DNA of 18,384 nt from a virus (taxonomy: Duplodnaviria > Heunggongvirae > Uroviricota > Caudoviricetes). This document shows, in pieces, positions 910-7,686 of this stretch (positions are counted from its first letter, which is position 1; each line of letters begins with the position of its first letter). The DNA lies in IMG/VR virus record IMGVR_UViG_2645727539_000015; one strand, written 5' to 3'. The notes beneath the pieces were generated by a model. It ran no database searches. It saw nothing but the letters and a program-made list of their open reading frames with translations, and was not told the origin of the DNA. A program made the translations under genes and the position numbers.

Positions 910-1969
910 ATGCTTAATACTGTAAAAATATCCAGTTATGAGTTAATCAACGCCGACTGCCTGGAATTTATGCGGTCGTTACCCGAAAATTCTGTTGACC
1001 TGATAGTCACGGACCCCCCCGTACTTCAAAGTGAAACCCGAGGGCTGGGATAACCAGTGGGCGGGTGATGAAGATTACCTGAAGTGGCTGGACCAGTGTC
1101 TTGCGCAGTTCTGGCGGGTGCTGAAACCAGCCGGAAGTCTTTACCTGTTCTGTGGCCATCGCCTGGCATCTGACATCGAAATCATGATGCGTGAGCGGTT
1201 TAACGTACTGAACCATATCATCTGGGCAAAGCCGTCCGGACGCTGGAACGGGTGTAACAAGGAAAGCCTGCGGGCGTATTTTCCGGCCACAGAGCGCATT
1301 CTGTTCGCGGAACATTATCAGGGGCCGTATCGCCCGAAAGATGATGGCTGTGAGGCGAAGGGCAGGGCACTGAAACAGCATGTGATGGCCCCGCTGATTG
1401 CTTACTTTCGTGATGCGCGCGCTGCCCTGGGGATAACGGCAAAACAGATTGCAGATGCCACAGGAAAGAAAAACATGGTGTCGCACTGGTTCAGTGCCGG
1501 TCAGTGGCAGTTGCCGAACGAAAGTGATTATCTGAAATTACAGGCGCTGTTTGCCCGGGTGGCAGAAGAGAAGCATCAGCGGGGTGAACTGGAAAAGCCC
1601 CACCACCAGCTGCTGGAGACGTATACTTCACTGAACCGGCAGTATGCGGAACTGCAGAGTGAATATAAGCATCTGCGGCGGTATTTTGGCGTGACGGCGC
1701 AGGTGCCGTACACGGATGTGTGGACGCACAAACCCGTACAGTTCTATCCCGGGAAACATCCGTGCGAAAAACCGGCAGAAATGCTGCGGCAGATAATCAG
1801 TGCGAGCAGTCGTCCGGGAGACCTGGTTGCAGATTTCTTCATGGGGTCAGGTTCAACGGTAAAAGCGGCGCTGTCACTGGGACGTCGGGCGATTGGTGTT
1901 GAGCTGGAGACCGGACGTTTTGAGCAGACAGTCAGGGAAGTTCAGGATTTTATCAGTCAGAACGGATGA
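910..1969 (+). pseudogene. beta-class DNA N6-adenine/N4-cytosine methyltransferase, split by a +1 frameshift in a C7 tract
   Basis: ATG 910 frame reads MLNTVKISSYELINADCLEFMRSLPENSVDLIVTDPP then stops at 1051-1053. The track ORF 1031..1969 (GTG start) continues in the next frame and ends with the AdoMet motif DFFMGSGST. Removing one C from the C7 run 1014-1020 gives in-frame DPPYFKVKPEGW, restoring the catalytic DPPY motif. Confidence 0.8.
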
Positions 1970-2009
1970 TATTGCAGAATCAGTGACGCACCGTTATTAT
2001 TCTGCGCCC

Positions 2010-2085
2010 GGCCCTTTAGCTCAGTGGTGAGAGCGAGCGACTCATAATCGCCAGGTCGCTGGTTCAAATCCAGCAAGGGCCACCA
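2010..2085 (+). tRNA. tRNA, anticodon CAU (Ile2-lysidine type or Met), 76 nt
   Basis: Manual cloverleaf: acceptor GGCCCTT/AAGGGCC, D-stem GCTC/GAGC, anticodon loop CTCATAA, T-arm GCTGG-TTCAAAT-CCAGC, encoded CCA. One A-C mismatch at the top of the anticodon stem. Confidence 0.85.
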
Positions 2086-2092
2086 TCACATA

Positions 2093-2169
2093 CCGCCATT
2101 AGCTCATCGGGATAGAGCGCCAGCCTTCGAAGCTGGTTGCGCGGGGTTCGAGACCTCGATGGCGGTCCA
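2093..2169 (+). tRNA. tRNA-Arg, anticodon UCG, 77 nt
   Basis: Acceptor CCGCCAT/ATGGCGG, D-stem GCTC/GAGC, anticodon stem CCAGC/GCTGG with loop CTTCGAA, T-arm CGGGG-TTCGAGA-CCTCG (one G-U pair), encoded CCA. Confidence 0.8.
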
Positions 2170-2182
2170 TTATCCGTACCCT

Positions 2183-2259
2183 GCGTTGTTAGCTCAGCCG
2201 GACAGAGCAATTGCCTTCTAAGCAATCGGTCACTGGTTCGAATCCAGTACAACGCGCCA
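2183..2259 (+). tRNA. tRNA-Arg, anticodon UCU (rare AGA/AGG codons), 77 nt
   Basis: Acceptor GCGTTGT/ACAACGC, D-stem GCTC/GAGC, anticodon stem ATTGC/GCAAT with loop CTTCTAA, T-arm ACTGG-TTCGAAT-CCAGT, encoded CCA. Confidence 0.85.
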
Positions 2260-2272
2260 TATTTATTTACCT

Positions 2273-2296
2273 GGCTCGCTTTTGCGGGCCTTTTTT
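2273..2296 (+). terminator. rho-independent terminator after the tRNA cluster
   Basis: Stem GGCTCGC/GCGGGCC (7 bp, one G-U), loop TTTT, then TTTTTT 2291-2296. Confidence 0.5.
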
Positions 2297-2428
2297 GTAT
2301 CCGCGCCACGCCCGGCGCATATCAACCACAGAGCCTTTCGGGGGTGAGCTTACGGAGTGGTCAGTGTGACTTTCTCTGTGGGCAGATCGCTCCCGGGCGT
2401 TGGCTCACCCACCCAAAGGAACGTCACG

Positions 2429-2860
2429 ATGTTTGGAATCTTCAAAAAGAAAACCCGCAGAGCGGCAGCGGAAATTAAAAAGTTTGAAAAACGCGATCTG
2501 GCCCAGGCGGTGATTAACGCCGCATACCTGGTGGCTTATGCCGATGGTGAATGTGAGGCTTCCGAGAAAGCGAAGATCGAACAGGTATTACGTAACCAGC
2601 CCGCCTTGTCCGCGTTTACGTCAGAAATTAATGCGATTGGCGCAACCATCACTGGTCAGCTTGACACCAACTTTAAAATTGGTCGTCGTGCGGCGTTACG
2701 TGAGATCGAGGATGTGAAACACGATATGCGAGAAGCGGAAGATGTGCTGGATGTGGCGGTGGCCATTGCGGAATCAGATGGCGAAATTGAGCCTGAAGAG
2801 CGCAAGGTGCTGGAAGAGATAGCCGGTGTTCTGGGCCTTCGTCTGGAGAATCACCTGTGA
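2429..2860 (+). CDS. TerB-like (tellurite-resistance TerB domain family) protein, 143 aa
   Basis: ATG 2429 with AAAGGA 6-7 nt upstream. Two copies of the TerB-type signature hydrophobic-A-x-A-D/S-G-E (AYLVAYADGECEASE and VAIAESDGEIEPEE) in a helical, acidic protein. The track ORF start at 2357 has no RBS. Confidence 0.6.
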   Translation: MFGIFKKKTRRAAAEIKKFEKRDLAQAVINAAYLVAYADGECEASEKAKIEQVLRNQPALSAFTSEINAIGATITGQLDTNFKIGRRAALREIEDVKHDMREAEDVLDVAVAIAESDGEIEPEERKVLEEIAGVLGLRLENHL

Positions 2861-3021
2861 CGGTAAAACTGCGCCTGGCCATTGTGGTAGTTCTGCTGTT
2901 TCTTGTCGTGATGGTGGACTTCAGCAGCCGGATAATGTCAGTGCTGGCAGATGGGATGCTGGTGGCTGGTGTTGTGGTTGTTGTTTTCCCGTTGCTGAAA
3001 AAGAAAACAACAGGTGGTTAG
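2857..3021 (+). CDS. possible small membrane peptide (54 aa), start overlapping the TerB-like stop
   Basis: GTG 2857 overlaps stop TGA 2858-2860 (GTGA); GGAGAA lies 7 nt upstream. Translation VTVKLRLAIVVVLLFLVVMVDF...GMLVAGVVVVVFPLLKKKTTGG has two hydrophobic segments and a basic C-terminus. Absent from the ORF track; the overlapping track frame 2826..3125 is Trp/Cys-rich and looks non-coding. Confidence 0.3.
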   Translation: MTVKLRLAIVVVLLFLVVMVDFSSRIMSVLADGMLVAGVVVVVFPLLKKKTTGG

Positions 3022-3263
3022 CAGGGTATCAGTTAGCCGGCGAAATTTTTAAATACCTCACAATTCAGCAAGTTTATGATTGTCTGGCTGACTGCGAATT
3101 TGTTAAAAATCGCGTCGCATGGTGAATCCCCCTCAGCGGCGGGGCATATCAGTACAGGTGTTTTCGTTTAGCCTTATCCTTTCTGTGCGGGTTCAGGTAC
3201 TGATACTGAACTCACCGGGAGGCACCCGGCACCATGCAGTATACAGAGATTAGGCATATCACC

Positions 3264-3289
3264 AGCCCCCTCTTCGGAGGGGGCTTTTT
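3264..3289 (+). terminator. rho-independent terminator (9-bp stem, UUCG tetraloop, T5)
   Basis: AGCCCCCTC-TTCG-GAGGGGGCT followed by TTTTT 3285-3289. Confidence 0.6.
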
Positions 3290-3386
3290 ACATGCAAAAA
3301 AAGCCCGCGTAGGGGGCGGGCGGTAAGAAATAAAACAAAACGTGAAGAAAATTATTCAGCTATTGGATAATACCTGAGGATTATGA

Positions 3387-3418
3387 GGCTGCGCAACTGC
3401 GCGGCCTTTTTCGTTTTT
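3387..3418 (+). terminator. rho-independent terminator (8-bp GC stem, loop AACT, T5-CG-T5)
   Basis: GGCTGCGC-AACT-GCGCGGCC (one G-U) followed by TTTTTCGTTTTT, about 80 nt upstream of the esterase start. Confidence 0.6.
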
Positions 3419-3497
3419 ACTGGCAGTTGTCTTTTGTGTTTTCAGACTTCAGTCAGTCCTTATCTGATTCAACCCACTATCCCGGCCGGGAGGATTC

Positions 3498-5411
3498 ATG
3501 GCATTTAAACATTATGATGTGGTCAGGGCTGCGTCGCCTTCAGACCTTGCGGAGCGACTGACACAAAAACTGAAGGAAGGCTGGCAGCCGTTTGGCAGCC
3601 CGGTCGCCATTACCCCTTATACCCTGATGCAGGCGATTGCCGCAGAAGGGGATGTCACCACGCCTGTCGTGGTGACACCGGAGGAAGGCGGTGCGGTGGT
3701 GAGCGATCCGACCCGTGAGCCTGAATATTACTATGTGCTGGTCACCGCAGGTCAGTCCAACAATATGGCAACCGGCGAAGGTATGCCCCTGCCTGACAGC
3801 TACGACCGTCCCGATCCACGCATTAAGCAGCTGGCCCGCCGCAGTGTGGTCCGACCGGGTGGTGCTGCCTGTAAATACAACGATGTGATTGAGGCCGATC
3901 ACTGTCTCCATGACGTTGAAGACATGAGTGCCAAAAATCACCCCAACGCGGACCTTTCCCGTGGTCAGTATGGTTGTGTCGGGCACGGCCTGCATATTGC
4001 CAAACGTCTTCTGCCCTATATTCCGGTTAATGCGGGGATCCTGATTGTGCCGTGCAGTCGTGGTGGCTCTGCGTTTACCGATCGTGATGAGGGTACCTAT
4101 AACCCGGAGACGGGGGCAACAGCGGATTCCTCCCGCTGGGGTGTGGGTAAACCGTTGTACATGGATTTAATTGCCCGCACGAAGGCGGCCCTTGAAAAGA
4201 ATCCGAAAAACGTCCTGCTGGCCGTGTACTGGATGCAGGGCGAGGGTGACTGTATGTCTTCAGGTTACACGGGGCATCCGGCGTTGTTTACGGCCATGGT
4301 GAAACAGTTCCGTACCGATCTAGCCGCGTATGCCGGTCAGTGCCTGGGCGGCGATGCGGCCCGTGTACCCTGGGTATGTGGTGACACCACCTTCTGGTGG
4401 AAGCAACAGTACCCGACACAATACAGCCTGGTTTATGGCGCGTACCGTAAAAACAGTGAGCCGAATGTGCATTTTGTCGAACTCATGAAGGATGAGACCG
4501 GTGCGAATGTTCCGACCAATAACCCGGCAGAAGATCCGGATGTGCCGGAAGCAAATTATTACGGTGCAGCATCACGCACGGCGGGTAACTGGACGAACCC
4601 GACACGCGCCATGCATTTCAGTTCCTGGGCCCGTCGCGGCATCCTGCCGGACCGTATAGCCACCGCAATCCTGACCCATGCAGGGCGTAACGGACCGTTC
4701 CTTGCCGGTGGAGATATAACGGAAAACTATCCGGAACCGGCAAAACCGAAGAGTAACGTTACCACCCTGTACAGCGGTGCAGAAAGTGAAGGTGCTTATG
4801 CCGAACAGGGCTGGACGCTGAGCGAAGGTAAGGCGGAAGTGGTACAGGATGAAAGCAGTGCTTCCGGACGGGCGCTGAAACTGAGCCAGGATGAAGCAAT
4901 GAACCTGAAGCTGACCCGTGAAGTGGCAAATGCGGCGGAACTGCTGAAAAACGGCGGTAAAATTACCTGTCGTTTTAAAATACCGGGAAGTGCGAACGGA
5001 AAACAGATAGCCCTGGCGATGTATCTGCAGCTGAAGGAAAGCGATATCCCTGAAGGTGTGGAATTTGCCAATAAGGCGGACGGTACCCATCCGTTCCTGG
5101 TGGCGTTCTATCTGCAGACAGAAACGGATGGCAAACTCAGTCTGATGCACAATGGTGCAGCGCAGACGCGTGTTGCGGGATACGGTACGCTGAACAGTGA
5201 ATGGCACACACTGGAGCTGGTATATCCGGGAGGAGGCCAGAACACGGTGACGCCGTATGTTGATACGGTAAAAGCTCCGACCACACAGCTGTCCTGGTTT
5301 AAATATGAAGGACAGGAGAACACGCTTATTCTGACGGATGCGTCGAATACAGCCACGTATGAAACGTGGATTGACGCGCTGACAGTGGAAGTAAACAGTC
5401 CGGCAGCCTGA
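3498..5411 (+). CDS. nanS-p: prophage NanS-p-type sialate (9-O-acetyl-Neu5Ac) O-acetylesterase, 637 aa
   Basis: ATG 3498 with GGGAGGA 5 nt upstream. N-terminus MAFKHYDVVRAASPSDLAERL is DUF1737-like, followed by a sialate-O-acetylesterase/SGNH-type region (YYYVLVTAGQSNNMATGEG) and a C-terminal domain. The position after the tRNA triplet matches the large esterase ORF of Stx-converting phages as I recall it. Confidence 0.85.
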   Translation: MAFKHYDVVRAASPSDLAERLTQKLKEGWQPFGSPVAITPYTLMQAIAAEGDVTTPVVVTPEEGGAVVSDPTREPEYYYVLVTAGQSNNMATGEGMPLPDSYDRPDPRIKQLARRSVVRPGGAACKYNDVIEADHCLHDVEDMSAKNHPNADLSRGQYGCVGHGLHIAKRLLPYIPVNAGILIVPCSRGGSAFTDRDEGTYNPETGATADSSRWGVGKPLYMDLIARTKAALEKNPKNVLLAVYWMQGEGDCMSSGYTGHPALFTAMVKQFRTDLAAYAGQCLGGDAARVPWVCGDTTFWWKQQYPTQYSLVYGAYRKNSEPNVHFVELMKDETGANVPTNNPAEDPDVPEANYYGAASRTAGNWTNPTRAMHFSSWARRGILPDRIATAILTHAGRNGPFLAGGDITENYPEPAKPKSNVTTLYSGAESEGAYAEQGWTLSEGKAEVVQDESSASGRALKLSQDEAMNLKLTREVANAAELLKNGGKITCRFKIPGSANGKQIALAMYLQLKESDIPEGVEFANKADGTHPFLVAFYLQTETDGKLSLMHNGAAQTRVAGYGTLNSEWHTLELVYPGGGQNTVTPYVDTVKAPTTQLSWFKYEGQENTLILTDASNTATYETWIDALTVEVNSPAA

Positions 5412-5952: not shown

Positions 5953-6032
5953 GGGGTTATATGCAGGTCACCGGTCAGGAGGCGGGTGACCCTGTTGTTT
6001 CTGCGGACTTCCGTCAGTCGGGAGGCGAGGGC

Positions 6033-6248
6033 ATGTATCAGATGGAAAAAATAGCAACGGGTGTGTCGTACAGCACATCAGCGGCGGGGACGGGATACTG
6101 GTTGTTTCAGATACTGGATAATGTCACGCCCTCACAGTGGACGGCTATTGGAGTGCTGGGGAGTCTGTTTTTTGGTTTGCTGACATACCTCACCAATCTG
6201 TATTTCAAAATCAGAGAGGACCGGCGTAAGGCAGCCCGGGGAGAGTGA
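6033..6248 (+). CDS. S: pinholin (phage 21 S21-like class II holin) with dual-start motif MYQMEK
   Basis: [23 protein letters not shown]...[22 protein letters not shown] closely matches the phage 21 pinholin as I recall it. GGAGG sits 7 nt before ATG 6033 and a second ATG at 6042 gives the antiholin/holin pair. The track ORF start at 5961 is an in-frame leader. Confidence 0.9.
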
Positions 6249-6252
6249 GACG

Positions 6253-6786
6253 GTGAGTCAGAAAGTCCGTTATGGTTTATCGGCTGCGGTTCTGGCGCTG
6301 ATTGCCGCAGGTGCTTCTGCGCCTGACATTCTTGACCAGTTTCTGGATGAAAAGGAAGGTAACCACACCACGGCATACCGTGATGGTGCGGGTATCTGGA
6401 CCATCTGCCGTGGTGCCATTCTGGTGGATGGTAAACCTGTTGTTCCGGGGATGAAGTTGTCGAAGGAAAAATGCGACCAGGTTAATGGCATTGAACGTGA
6501 TAAGGCGCTGGCATGGGTGGAGAAAAACATCAGAGTGCCACTGACTGAACCCCAGAAAGCGGGGATCGCGTCATTCTGCCCGTACAACATTGGCCCCGGT
6601 AAGTGTTTTCCGTCGACGTTTTATAAACGAATTAATGCAGGTGATCGAAAAGGTGCCTGCGAAGCGATTCGCTGGTGGATTAAGGACGGTGGCAGAGACT
6701 GCCGTATCCGCTCAAACAACTGCTACGGTCAGGTATCCCGTCGTGACCAGGAAAGTGCGCTGGCGTGCTGGGGCATCGACAGATAG
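6253..6786 (+). CDS. R: SAR (signal-anchor-release) endolysin, T4-lysozyme-like
   Basis: GTG start 4 nt after the holin stop; N-terminal Gly/Ala-rich weak TM segment YGLSAAVLALIAAGASA; catalytic E/D/T spacing (EGNH..RDGAG..WTICRG) typical of the family and of pinholin partners. Confidence 0.85.
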   Translation: MSQKVRYGLSAAVLALIAAGASAPDILDQFLDEKEGNHTTAYRDGAGIWTICRGAILVDGKPVVPGMKLSKEKCDQVNGIERDKALAWVEKNIRVPLTEPQKAGIASFCPYNIGPGKCFPSTFYKRINAGDRKGACEAIRWWIKDGGRDCRIRSNNCYGQVSRRDQESALACWGIDR

Positions 6787-7083
6787 CAGAATATTTTGCT
6801 GAAAAATAACGTTTACTCACGCGGACGGATAACACGAAATCCTGCGAACTGGCAAAATGTAAGTGGATAAAGTCAAAACAGTTGTTTAACACTCAGGCAC
6901 TGTAATGGTGCCTTTGTCATTTCTGCGCTTCGCACAAGCGTAAATAAACCAAAGAACCTTTCAGGATGAGCCCTGGTGGATAACCGGCAGTGGTCTGGTT
7001 AACCCTCTTTGGGCTGGTTATTCCTGTGCGCAGGGTTCATCACTAAAAGGAATCAACCATGAAAGAGATGATTTCTGTCGATC

Positions 7084-7686
7084 ATGACACCTCATGAACC
7101 GCGTAAGTTCCTTGCAAAAATTGAGGACGAACTTGAGCTTGAGGTAACCTGGAAAAAATTCCGGTTAAACAATAACCAGACAAGAACGGCATACTATGAT
7201 CTGGATTTTGACCAGATGATGCTCGTTGGCATGAGGGAGTCAAAGGCCGTTCGTCGTTCTGTGCTGGCAAGACTCAAAGCGATGCATGGTATTCAGATCC
7301 CCCGGACTTTACCTGAGGCGTTGCGATTTGCGGCAAAACTGGCAGAACAGAAAGCAGAGCTGGAAAATCAACTGGCAATAGCAGCGCCGAAGGCTGAATT
7401 TGTTGATAACTATGTTGAAGCATCTGGTCTGATGGGATTCCGGGAAGTTGCTAAGTTATTCGGTATCAAAGAAACCGATTTCCGGCTGTTTTTGTTGGAG
7501 AACGGAATAATGTATCGCCTCGCTGGAAAAATGACGCATTACTCGCATCACCTGGATGCGGGGCGGTTTAGCGTGAAAACGGGCGAGGCGGGCAATGGTC
7601 ATGCTTTTACGCAGGTTAAATTCACCCCAAAAGGTGTTCAGTGGATTGCTGGTCTGTTTGCTGCATGGAGAGCTACCGCAGCATGA
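7084..7686 (+). CDS. phage antirepressor-like protein (KilAC/Ant C-terminal domain), possibly N-terminally truncated
   Basis: C-terminal half (AKLFGIKETDFRLFLLENGIMY...FTPKGVQWIAGLF) fits the KilAC pattern. No SD before ATG 7084, whereas an SD-equipped ATG at 7058 opens a 12-codon ORF in another frame. Confidence 0.5.
   Translation: MTPHEPRKFLAKIEDELELEVTWKKFRLNNNQTRTAYYDLDFDQMMLVGMRESKAVRRSVLARLKAMHGIQIPRTLPEALRFAAKLAEQKAELENQLAIAAPKAEFVDNYVEASGLMGFREVAKLFGIKETDFRLFLLENGIMYRLAGKMTHYSHHLDAGRFSVKTGEAGNGHAFTQVKFTPKGVQWIAGLFAAWRATAA

Follow-up and report, generated by a model that had tools for sequence, protein, structure and literature searches.

The window analysed here is contig JHSD01000099.1 of assembly GCA_001265815.1 (18,384 bp), the late region of a lambdoid Stx-type prophage with about 92-94% identity to Stx1a- and Stx2a-converting phages. 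The subject of this report is the cargo that it carries between a triplet of tRNA genes and a small RNA (sRNA) gene of the STnc100 family, in the slot that holds stx2A and stx2B in the Stx2a phage. With very little doubt as to its identity and anatomy, this cargo is a four-part cassette consisting of an intrinsic terminator, a 132-nucleotide (nt) pseudoknotted leader RNA, tciA, which encodes a TerB-family protein, and tciB, which encodes a small membrane peptide. The pair is the known tciA/tciB named in phage P1, which is common, annotated and experimentally uncharacterised in function, and the exact protein pair of the window is labelled E. coli in the sources; what is new in the interval is the family of leader RNAs. 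The best explanation overall, held with about equal belief and doubt, is that tciAB forms a lytic-cycle, membrane-associated TerB module locked by the terminator and by the translational leader.

A structured leader RNA in front of tciA

The leader fills the interval between the upstream terminator and tciA and is organised around the ribosome-binding site. Hairpin P1 pairs 2303-2307 with 2314-2318, and its loop (2308-2313) forms pseudoknot PK1 with 2395-2400, a partner about 85 nt downstream; the long-range helix Pa pairs 2326-2333 with 2374-2381; in the anti-Shine-Dalgarno (anti-SD) helix, 2334-2341 pairs with 2412-2419, where CCUUU covers the AAAGG of the Shine-Dalgarno (SD) sequence AAAGGA at 2415-2420; helix Pb pairs 2342-2350 with 2402-2410; and Pc (2359-2363/2367-2371) is a variable hairpin. 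The SD and the preceding 5-7 nt are thus held in a conserved long helix, and an ATG follows 9-15 nt past the SD in all leader copies.

Leader homologs came from three sources, namely genome loci, viral contigs and a search of metagenomes with a leader-only pattern. In the metagenome search, a TerB open reading frame (ORF) stands next in about 80 of the 88 distinct hits, the other 8 being evident chance hits. The leader is conserved across genera far above the synonymous sites of tciA and is non-coding, with lengths of 117-143 nt in all three classes modulo 3 and in-frame stops in 43 of 51 distinct copies. Extended TerB ORFs of 167 and 192 amino acids (aa), which some gene callers run through the leader, were rejected because of these lengths and stops and because of the conserved MFG(I/F)FKKK start.

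The structure is supported by covariation in two alignments. In a MAFFT alignment of 28 diverse leaders, 94.1% of cells were paired, compared with 32-50% when the partners were slid, and 11 pairs showed compensatory change, compared with 4.7 ± 1.6 in shuffles, of which 0 of 500 reached 11; related sequences inflate this shuffle statistic, and the structure was derived from the same sequences. In a model-made alignment of the 51 distinct copies, 95.5% of cells were paired versus 34-48% with slid partners, and 19 of 26 pairs were compensatory versus 2-9 (10 of 11 in Pb and 5 of 5 in P1). Stronger evidence for the structure comes from the slid controls and from the large number of independent sequence versions. 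PK1 and Pa, which both lie outside the covariance model, were counted by a per-sequence duplex search with non-cognate controls, column counts on the model-made alignment being rejected because differences in linker length shift the columns; each helix exists in 9-10 different Watson-Crick-matched versions. For PK1 these include CGCCC/GGGCG, CGCUC/GAGCG, GGCUC/GAGCC, CGCACA/UGUGCG, UCUCAC/GUGAGA and UUUCCCA/UGGGAAA, and for Pa they include CCACAGAG/CUCUGUGG, CCGUAGAG/CUCUACGG, CCAAAGA/UCUUUGG and CUGAGAA/UUCUCAG. Cognate strands share 5.8 bp of complementarity in PK1 and 7.2 bp in Pa, against 3.7 and 4.6 bp for non-cognate strands. The nested minimum-free-energy fold was set aside in favour of the covariation model, its central helix (52-61/78-87) being only 74.7% paired in homologs.

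Rfam 15 gave no match to the leader at gathering thresholds over the whole window and only noise at E ≤ 10 over 2255-2450; no annotated feature lies under the leader in the 24 RefSeq E. coli records listed, and full-text literature searches found no published description of it. The leader is well supported as a structured cis-regulatory RNA family that matches no catalogued RNA family.

A covariance model built from tciA leaders only detects a second, full-length copy in the window between the endolysin gene and ant (74.4 bits, E about 1e-19), while scores on the reverse strand reach only 11-19 bits. This copy retains all helices with different sequences, and its minimum-free-energy structure pairs CCUUU with the SD (z-score -3.26). 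The ant leader is present in 276 phage records by blastn, mostly of Stx2a- or Stx1a-converting phages. By comparison with Stx1a phages and Lys8385Vzw, the ant gene of the window has apparently lost about 68 bp and is split into a 12-codon ORF (7060-7098) and a 200-aa KilAC ORF (7084-7686), so that it is probably a pseudogene; intact ant genes at the corresponding ATG encode 231 aa in phage Lys8385Vzw and 189 aa in phi296. The leader also stands before a P22_AR_N-type antirepressor in Stx1 phage NC_004913, a KilA-N/P63C protein in a Klebsiella phage, an HNH endonuclease in phage ECP1 (L239 896-1588) and a 216-aa protein with a marginal Pfam match only in a metagenomic prophage (L152 5314-8996). 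A large ORF comes next in both ECP1, where it is annotated as a glycosyltransferase, and the metagenomic prophage; these genes may form a further accessory module under the same leader control.

The leader occupies a habitual position. A terminator-like hairpin with a T-run ends just 5' of it in 41 of the 51 distinct contexts, with at least 8 different hairpin sequences, and in jumbo phages the leader starts a few nucleotides 3' of a tRNA. The tciA-type leader is found in 1,242 of 5,426 complete E. coli genomes (about 23%) at 2,842 places, with up to six copies per genome; the whole genome of phage JLK-2012 holds one copy. The leader is also carried by Stx1 and Stx2 phages, by phages of Pantoea and Klebsiella and by jumbo phages of Erwinia and Salmonella.

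Leaders that sequester an SD are known from riboswitch expression platforms and from the mom gene of phage Mu, whose leader is opened by the Com protein. The tciA leader resembles them in that a conserved helix pairs with the SD of a phage accessory or toxic gene; it differs in having two long-range interactions that cross the SD helix and in its habitual position after a terminator or tRNA. The terC RNA motif and the Mn2+ (yybP-ykoY) riboswitch are cis-regulatory RNAs found upstream of TerC-family genes (PMC5737381) and are similarly tied to membrane-stress genes of 'Ter' name. However, neither of them is matched in Rfam 15 even at E ≤ 10, and the tciA-type leader also precedes non-Ter genes.

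The tciA-tciB pair and the stx-equivalent slot

TciA matches Pfam TerB (PF05099) over residues 26-138 with 58.9 bits (cutoff 24.4, E 7e-16) and PHROG 632 'tellurite resistance' with E 6e-68, and a profile of 57 TciA homologs matches the solved TerB structure 2JXU_A over residues 18-144, its full length, with E 1e-14. The TerB-family assignment made in the original prediction is thereby borne out. The AlphaFold model is all-alpha with seven helices and a predicted local distance difference test (pLDDT) score of 88.8; its best Foldseek matches are 2H5N (probability 1.00, E 0.018) and 2OU3 (probability 0.69, E 1.8), the latter deposited as a COG3793 tellurite-resistance protein, with TM-scores of 0.48-0.55 and none at E ≤ 0.001. 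An acidic D-G-x5-E motif is duplicated in the protein (D39-G40...E46 and D117-G118...E124) and is invariant or at least 90% conserved across homologs. TciA is thus a soluble TerB-fold protein with two acidic DG-x5-E motifs. Two families of membrane proteins, DUF533 and DjlA, are matched weakly (E 5e-5 and E 2.5e-6, respectively), with scores far under the family cut-offs, and TciA is for this reason not a member of either. At the Candidatus Pantoea communis locus, two more ORFs near tciA (L020 1843-2262 and 4203-4616) have N-termini that look TerB-like by eye, which suggests that one prophage may carry several TerB paralogs.

TciB, which starts with GTG, matches Pfam DUF3927 with 72.1 bits (cutoff 25, E 4e-20) and PHROG 1470 'TciB-like'. 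Two hydrophobic segments, with hydropathy maxima of 3.19 and 2.71, surround a minimum at DFSSR, and both ends are basic; TciB is accordingly a two-helix inner-membrane hairpin with basic termini, and both ends should face the cytoplasm by the positive-inside rule. The GTG start overlaps the TGA stop of tciA as GTGA, and GGAGA lies 9 nt upstream. At 17 TerB loci drawn from contigs, one genome per species, a homologous ORF of about 50 aa abuts or overlaps the TerB stop in 15, namely in Franconibacter, Pantoea, Pseudescherichia, Enterobacter, Buttiauxella, Dryocola, Serratia, Symbiopectobacterium, Pectobacterium and an Aeromonadaceae metagenome-assembled genome (MAG). The core VDF(T/S)S..(M/L)SVL(A/S)DG is common to the 15 loci, which cover about 10 genera. 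The junction takes the form GTGA, or TAATG or TGATG, both in these 15 loci and in jumbo phages, and likewise in another TerB subfamily, in which the GTGA overlap itself recurs. The family is small, always about 40-90 aa, with 49 clusters at 50% identity among 1.84 billion representatives.

The ratio of nonsynonymous to synonymous substitution rates (dN/dS) is 0.02-0.06 for tciA against close clades and 0.15-0.46 for tciB against the window copy, where synonymous differences amount to 0.6-0.8 per site, near saturation. Both genes are under purifying selection, and the abutting homologs in 15 of 17 loci together with the dN/dS values establish tciB as a genuine gene. The two genes are translationally coupled and co-inherited over about 10 genera and in a number of unrelated types of phage. 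The 54-aa two-helix membrane peptide with its GTG overlap, which the original prediction had offered as a possibility, has therefore been confirmed by family match, conservation and hydropathy. The remaining two loci, of Pseudomonas juntendi (L025 3441-3644) and a Paracoccus MAG (L029 3398-3604), carry a different small ORF that overlaps the TerB stop; these ORFs encode 67-68 aa with one N-terminal hydrophobic helix, are mutually similar and have no Pfam match. Since the distant TerB genes of Pseudomonas and Paracoccus precede another small ORF with a single transmembrane helix, a small membrane partner seems to be a general requirement. Two other candidates were rejected: a 99-aa ORF at 2826-3125 has no family match, is interrupted in relatives and is spurious, and the TerB-DUF3927 'fusion' proteins P0124, P0186 and P0252, considered as Rosetta-stone evidence, are frameshift products or mis-called chimeras.

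The tciABC genes of phage P1, present also in D6 and P7, are similar in several respects: P1 tciA is about 52% identical to the window protein, P1 tciB is a homologous 54-aa peptide with a VDFTS...SVLSDG core, the genes abut, and they stand beside phage tRNA genes in P1 too. P1 differs in having a third small gene, tciC, for which the window has no counterpart, its tciB being followed by STnc100 after a gap of 65 nt; the pairs of P1 and D6 lack the leader RNA, and P1 is a plasmid prophage rather than a lambdoid one.

The slot itself is defined by comparison with the Stx2a phage LC567840, whose gene order is identical (methylase, three tRNAs, stx2A, stx2B, STnc100, yjhS), the same three tRNAs standing before stx2A. 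Homology to this phage breaks at window position 2307/2308 and resumes at 3057/3058, and between the breakpoints lie stx2A and stx2B in LC567840 and tciA and tciB in the window. The two cargoes therefore share the slot between the tRNA triplet with its terminator and STnc100, as well as the late-operon position, but are unrelated, and of the leader the Stx2a phage keeps the first 11 nt only. STnc100 matches Rfam RF02076 with 159.9 bits against a gathering score of 47 over model positions 1-206 of 206; it is also found 3' of stx2B in the Stx2a phage and 3' of tciB in phage JLK-2012, and it is a fixed landmark of the stx-equivalent slot. In a Pas-sRNA survey, TerB is among the conserved neighbours of prophage sRNAs.

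In the alignment of LC567840 (L001 1517-1926) with window positions 1900-2307, the Stx2a phage retains the upstream terminator and the leader's first 11 nt, through the 5' strand of hairpin P1. After these 11 nt LC567840 diverges into its stx2 region, which is consistent with an exchange of stx and leader-tciAB for one another by recombination at 2307. Upstream of tciA in P1 and D6 (L003 about 2100-2160 and L032 about 2080-2140), CACCGGGAGGAACCCGGCACCGCAA resembles the conserved 3' domain of STnc100, CACCGGGAGGCACCCGGCACCAUGCA, by eye; Rfam gives no match at the gathering threshold in this stretch. A terminator-like hairpin on the minus strand stands just past STnc100 at 3303-3321; the Stx2a phage compared has the minus-strand gene iraM in this interval, a gene that is absent from the window.

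The features of the window are collected in Table 1. The original prediction had described a layout of tRNA triplet, NanS-p esterase and pinholin lysis cassette with the pair in the slot of stx, and both statements held: the tRNAs, the esterase, the P21-type holin and the lysozyme were all found, and the homology breakpoints flank the pair exactly. Only the extent assigned to the cargo needs correction, since its end at 3125 is that of the spurious 99-aa ORF and lies inside the STnc100 gene. Beyond ant, the spanin genes are followed by the terminase and head genes.

Table 1. Features of the window between the DNA methylase gene and ant.
Feature	Position	Strand	Basis and remarks
DNA methylase	1031-1969		Profile match
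tRNA Met/Ile2(CAT), Arg(TCG), Arg(TCT)	2010-2259	+	ARAGORN and Rfam; left landmark of the slot
Intrinsic terminator-like hairpin with T-run	2273-2296	+	Consensus scan; directly 5' of leader copy 1
Pseudoknotted 5' leader RNA of tciA, copy 1	2297-2428	+	Covariation, conservation
tciA, 143-aa cytosolic TerB-family protein	2429-2860	+	Pfam TerB, PHROG 632
tciB, 54-aa DUF3927 two-helix membrane peptide	2857-3021	+	Pfam DUF3927, PHROG 1470
STnc100-family sRNA gene with own terminator	3087-3295	+	Rfam RF02076; right landmark of the slot, outside the cassette
Terminator-like hairpin	3303-3321	-	Just past STnc100
Terminator-like site, further downstream	3385-3408	+	Consensus scan
NanS-p-type esterase (DUF1737, SASA, DUF6645)	3498-5411		Pfam
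P21-type holin	5961-6248		Lysis gene
Lysozyme	6253-6786		Lysis gene
Terminator-like hairpin with T-run	6895-6918	+	Consensus scan, hairpin at 6895-6913; directly 5' of leader copy 2
Leader RNA family, copy 2	6919-7059	+	Covariance model from tciA leaders, match at 6919-7064
ant (antirepressor, KilAC domain), disrupted	7060-7686	+	Pfam ANT

The pair is widely distributed and already carries names. Phage JLK-2012 annotates tciA and tciB in the order Q, tRNAs, tciA, tciB, yjhS, S, R, Rz, the same names are used for P1 and D6, and the RefSeq labels are 'tellurite resistance TerB family protein' and 'DUF3927 family protein'. A copy covering at least 80% of the pair occurs in 803 of the 5,426 complete E. 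coli genomes, and any match to the pair in 2,696, of which about 1,893 have a partial match only. Close TciA homologs are found in Klebsiella, Salmonella, Serratia, Pantoea, Enterobacter and Cronobacter, and tciA and tciB occur together in Machinavirus jumbo phages of Erwinia and Salmonella. It had been foreseen that the cassette might turn out to be a common annotated prophage gene with a known unrelated function; the pair is indeed common, annotated and named, while no unrelated known function attaches to it. It adjoins phage tRNA genes in lambdoid phages, P1, D6 and jumbo phages (L002 3599-3832; L003 1142-1295 and 2937-3012; L032 1223-2989; L030 1142-1606; L031 468-1119), and an Asn-Thr tRNA pair is common to JLK-2012 and P1. 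A functional link between tciAB and tRNAs was considered and rejected, most prophage loci having no tRNA within 3 kb, and the proximity is read as a probable sign of a shared cargo hot spot.

Expression of the cassette and rival explanations

A consensus scan places terminator-like sites at 2273-2290, 3264-3285 and 3385-3408. The upstream terminator (2273-2296 with its T-run) has a 7-bp stem with 6 G-C pairs followed by TTTTTT; it is common to Stx2 phages, the homology running to 2307, and it also accompanies the cassette in genomes without upstream tRNAs. The terminator at 3264-3289 is the 3' end of STnc100, an independent sRNA gene that is also found 3' of stx2B. A crude consensus scan of the + strand over 1900-3600 found no sigma-70 consensus site, including between the terminator and tciA. 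The original prediction had the pair bracketed by terminators and took this as the signature of an autonomous moron. Three terminator-like sites are indeed present, and the upstream one travels with the cassette; the first site downstream, at 3264-3289, however, belongs to STnc100, the scan found no promoter-like site, and the signature is not supported. The order of terminator, structured leader and gene points to terminator-resistant late transcription and not to a unit that the lysogen expresses on its own. The order in prophages of Pantoea and Franconibacter, with the translations judged by eye, appears to be Q-like ORF, terminator, leader, tciA, tciB and lysozyme-like ORF. Late lytic expression of tciAB is favoured because the scan found no promoter-like site and because of the Q-like gene order and the presence of the pair in virulent jumbo phages. 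It has been reported that P1 tciA is transcribed during lytic infection by P1vir (bioRxiv 10.64898/2025.12.28.696737).

We lean slightly towards a double lock, in which the terminator and the translational leader together govern expression. Late RNA polymerase, modified by Q and resistant to terminators, would read through from pR' and provide the sole transcription of the cassette, by the same route as for stx2. The conserved helix that pairs with the SD implies a default OFF state that needs a trigger, so that translation of tciA, and through coupling that of tciB, would be blocked for as long as the SD helix stays closed; a ligand, a protein of the phage or of the host, or RNA processing could serve as the trigger. 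A double lock of this kind would suit genes that are harmful at the wrong time, such as those for Ant, KilA, HNH and membrane proteins. It is possible, if somewhat doubtful, that the leader represents a new class of signal-responsive translational switch, which could be a riboswitch or could serve as operator for a dedicated factor of phage or host, and which would silence potentially toxic accessory genes until a defined moment of infection.

The leader could instead be a constitutive structural or processing element, such as a site for RNase III or RNase E, that responds to no signal; it would separate the mRNA of the accessory gene from the late polycistron and fix a low translation level or the mRNA half-life. 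The anti-SD and Pb helices together form a nearly continuous helix of about 17-19 bp, which is close to the length of an RNase III substrate, and the helix strands are conserved in sequence beyond the needs of pairing. The position right after terminators and tRNAs is one where transcripts undergo processing, and the downstream genes (TerB, Ant, KilA-N, HNH) are unrelated and give no hint of a common metabolite. However, simple processing sites seldom need Pa and PK1, each of which is kept by many compensatory changes, and strands with two possible partners (GAGCC with GGCUC, or within Pa and the anti-SD) are more typical of alternative conformations. A constitutive element of this kind is judged rather unlikely.

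The proposed function of the pair, a membrane complex acting in the lytic cycle, is a tentative one, held with more doubt than belief. The TerB encoded in the terZABCDEF operon (2JXU) shares with TciA a full-length profile match, the all-alpha fold and the duplicated DG-x5-E motif, and in both systems a soluble TerB is paired with a membrane protein; TerB has been reported as an interaction partner of the integral membrane protein TerC (PMC11003894). The systems differ in their low sequence similarity, in the partner, which in the window is a 54-aa two-helix peptide unlike the multi-pass TerC, and in the neighbourhood, the window having no other ter genes and the neighbours being tRNAs, tciB, STnc100 and nanS-p. 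The inner-membrane proteins DjlA and YebE/DUF533, in which a TerB-like domain is fused to a transmembrane helix, are linked to TciA by weak but specific matches, which suggests that TciA may follow the same principle, with its TerB domain kept on the cytoplasmic side of the membrane; in contrast, the membrane part of TciA is a separate, translationally coupled gene. Since TerB domains are as a rule tied to the membrane, through a fused helix in DjlA and YebE/DUF533 and through TerC in classical TerB, TciB would tether TciA at the membrane, anchoring or partnering it at the cytoplasmic face of the inner membrane. TciA-TciB would then be the two-gene counterpart of the membrane-tethered TerB domains found in DjlA and YebE, and a counterpart of TerB with TerC. 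Acting late in lytic growth, this complex would sense or buffer membrane and cation disturbance, and up to the time of programmed lysis it could shield the infected cell from collapsing too early, from superinfection and from colicin-type insults. The TerB proteins of defence systems are considered to monitor the membrane (bioRxiv 10.1101/2025.09.30.679545).

The original prediction took the pair for an autonomous moron that could serve in stress response, superinfection exclusion or abortive infection, a TerB-like sensor being combined with a small membrane effector; in the form weighed here, it would be a defence module expressed from the prophage in the lysogen. TerB domains do occur in the validated defence systems Shango, Bunzi and Dionysus (bioRxiv 10.1101/2025.09.30.679545), and the literature connects the classical ter operon with the inhibition of phages and with resistance to colicins; stx marks the slot as an established place for cargo, and a conserved intramembrane Asp in TciB would suit an ion-leak effector. 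The transcriptional findings speak against this proposal, namely the terminator directly upstream of a cassette for which the scan found no promoter-like site and the supposed bracketing terminator downstream, which is the sRNA's own, and so does the sequestration of the SD by the leader. Machinavirus jumbo phages are virulent and are not known to form lysogens, and the presence of the pair in them is a further point against it. In addition, no PADLOC model matches, the best score being to the unrelated candidate PDC-S48 (E 0.005), and the window contains no ATPase, helicase or pore-toxin partner of the Shango, Bunzi or Dionysus type. A defence moron is thus unlikely.

Counter-defence, in which a phage TerB look-alike poisons or decoys the host's TerB-based immune sensors at the membrane, is highly improbable: the pair is present in Machinavirus jumbo phages, and the TerB-containing Dionysus, whose TerB protein is predicted to dimerise, specifically blocks jumbo phages (bioRxiv 10.1101/2025.09.30.679545), but the PADLOC search detected no resemblance to TerB proteins of defence systems, and the strongly conserved metal-type DG...E motifs suggest an active TerB rather than a decoy. 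The literal annotation, resistance of the host to tellurite or another oxyanion or metal, is scarcely credible in spite of the family name and the homology to the ter-operon TerB, since terC, terD, terE and terZ are all absent from the window, the resistance constructs in the cited work carry terBCDEF or more and never terB alone (PMC11003894), and 'tci' was named by homology only.

Several points weigh against the preferred explanation, the lytic-cycle membrane-associated TerB module under a double lock. The promoter scan used a simple sigma-70 consensus, which weak, sigma-S or activator-dependent promoters would escape, so that expression in the lysogen is possible; Pa and PK1 cross the SD helix and are compatible either with one compact knot or with an alternating switch; and the contact between TciA and TciB is one that we infer. 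By the covariance model the leader is absent from tciA of P1 and D6, and it is absent too at more distant TerB loci; because P1 and D6 tciA lack it, the function of tciAB in itself does not require the leader. Literature searches found no functional experiment on tciA, tciB or DUF3927. It has been reported that P1 tciA, tciB and tciC are all non-essential by CRISPR interference (PMC10695390), and that nearly half of one subgroup of P1-like plasmids lacks the tci operon, whose role is called unclear (PMC9603915). The partial E. coli matches in the records examined are a 3' tciB remnant beside tRNAs with tciA deleted (L004 2489-2605, L005 2469-2600 and L006 2486-2599), a sign of frequent cassette decay or replacement. 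It follows from the non-essentiality in P1, the loss from P1-like plasmids and the many E. coli prophages with only a 3' tciB remnant that the benefit of tciAB is conditional.

Implications for phage accessory genes

Taken alone, the tciAB pair is ordinary, a widespread, named and uncharacterised phage accessory pair. The likely lytic-cycle gating and a probable split membrane-tethered TerB module nevertheless narrow the search for tci function, and the tciAB case argues against the default view of the stx slot in Stx-negative prophages as a lysogenic-conversion locus. The leader matters more than the pair, particularly because ant of Shiga-toxin phages is also gated by the leader family: the leader pairs with the ribosome-binding site of both tciA and ant, usually immediately past an intrinsic terminator. 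A 'terminator plus translational lock' design recurs in this way among phage accessory genes, and literature searches found no earlier description of it. If the leader is indeed a signal-responsive switch, it would gate TerB/tciAB, Ant of Stx1 and Stx2 phages, KilA-N proteins and HNH nucleases in enterobacterial phages; and since ant is gated in at least 276 phage records, mostly Stx-converting, the leader could influence prophage cross-induction and hence the release of Shiga toxin.

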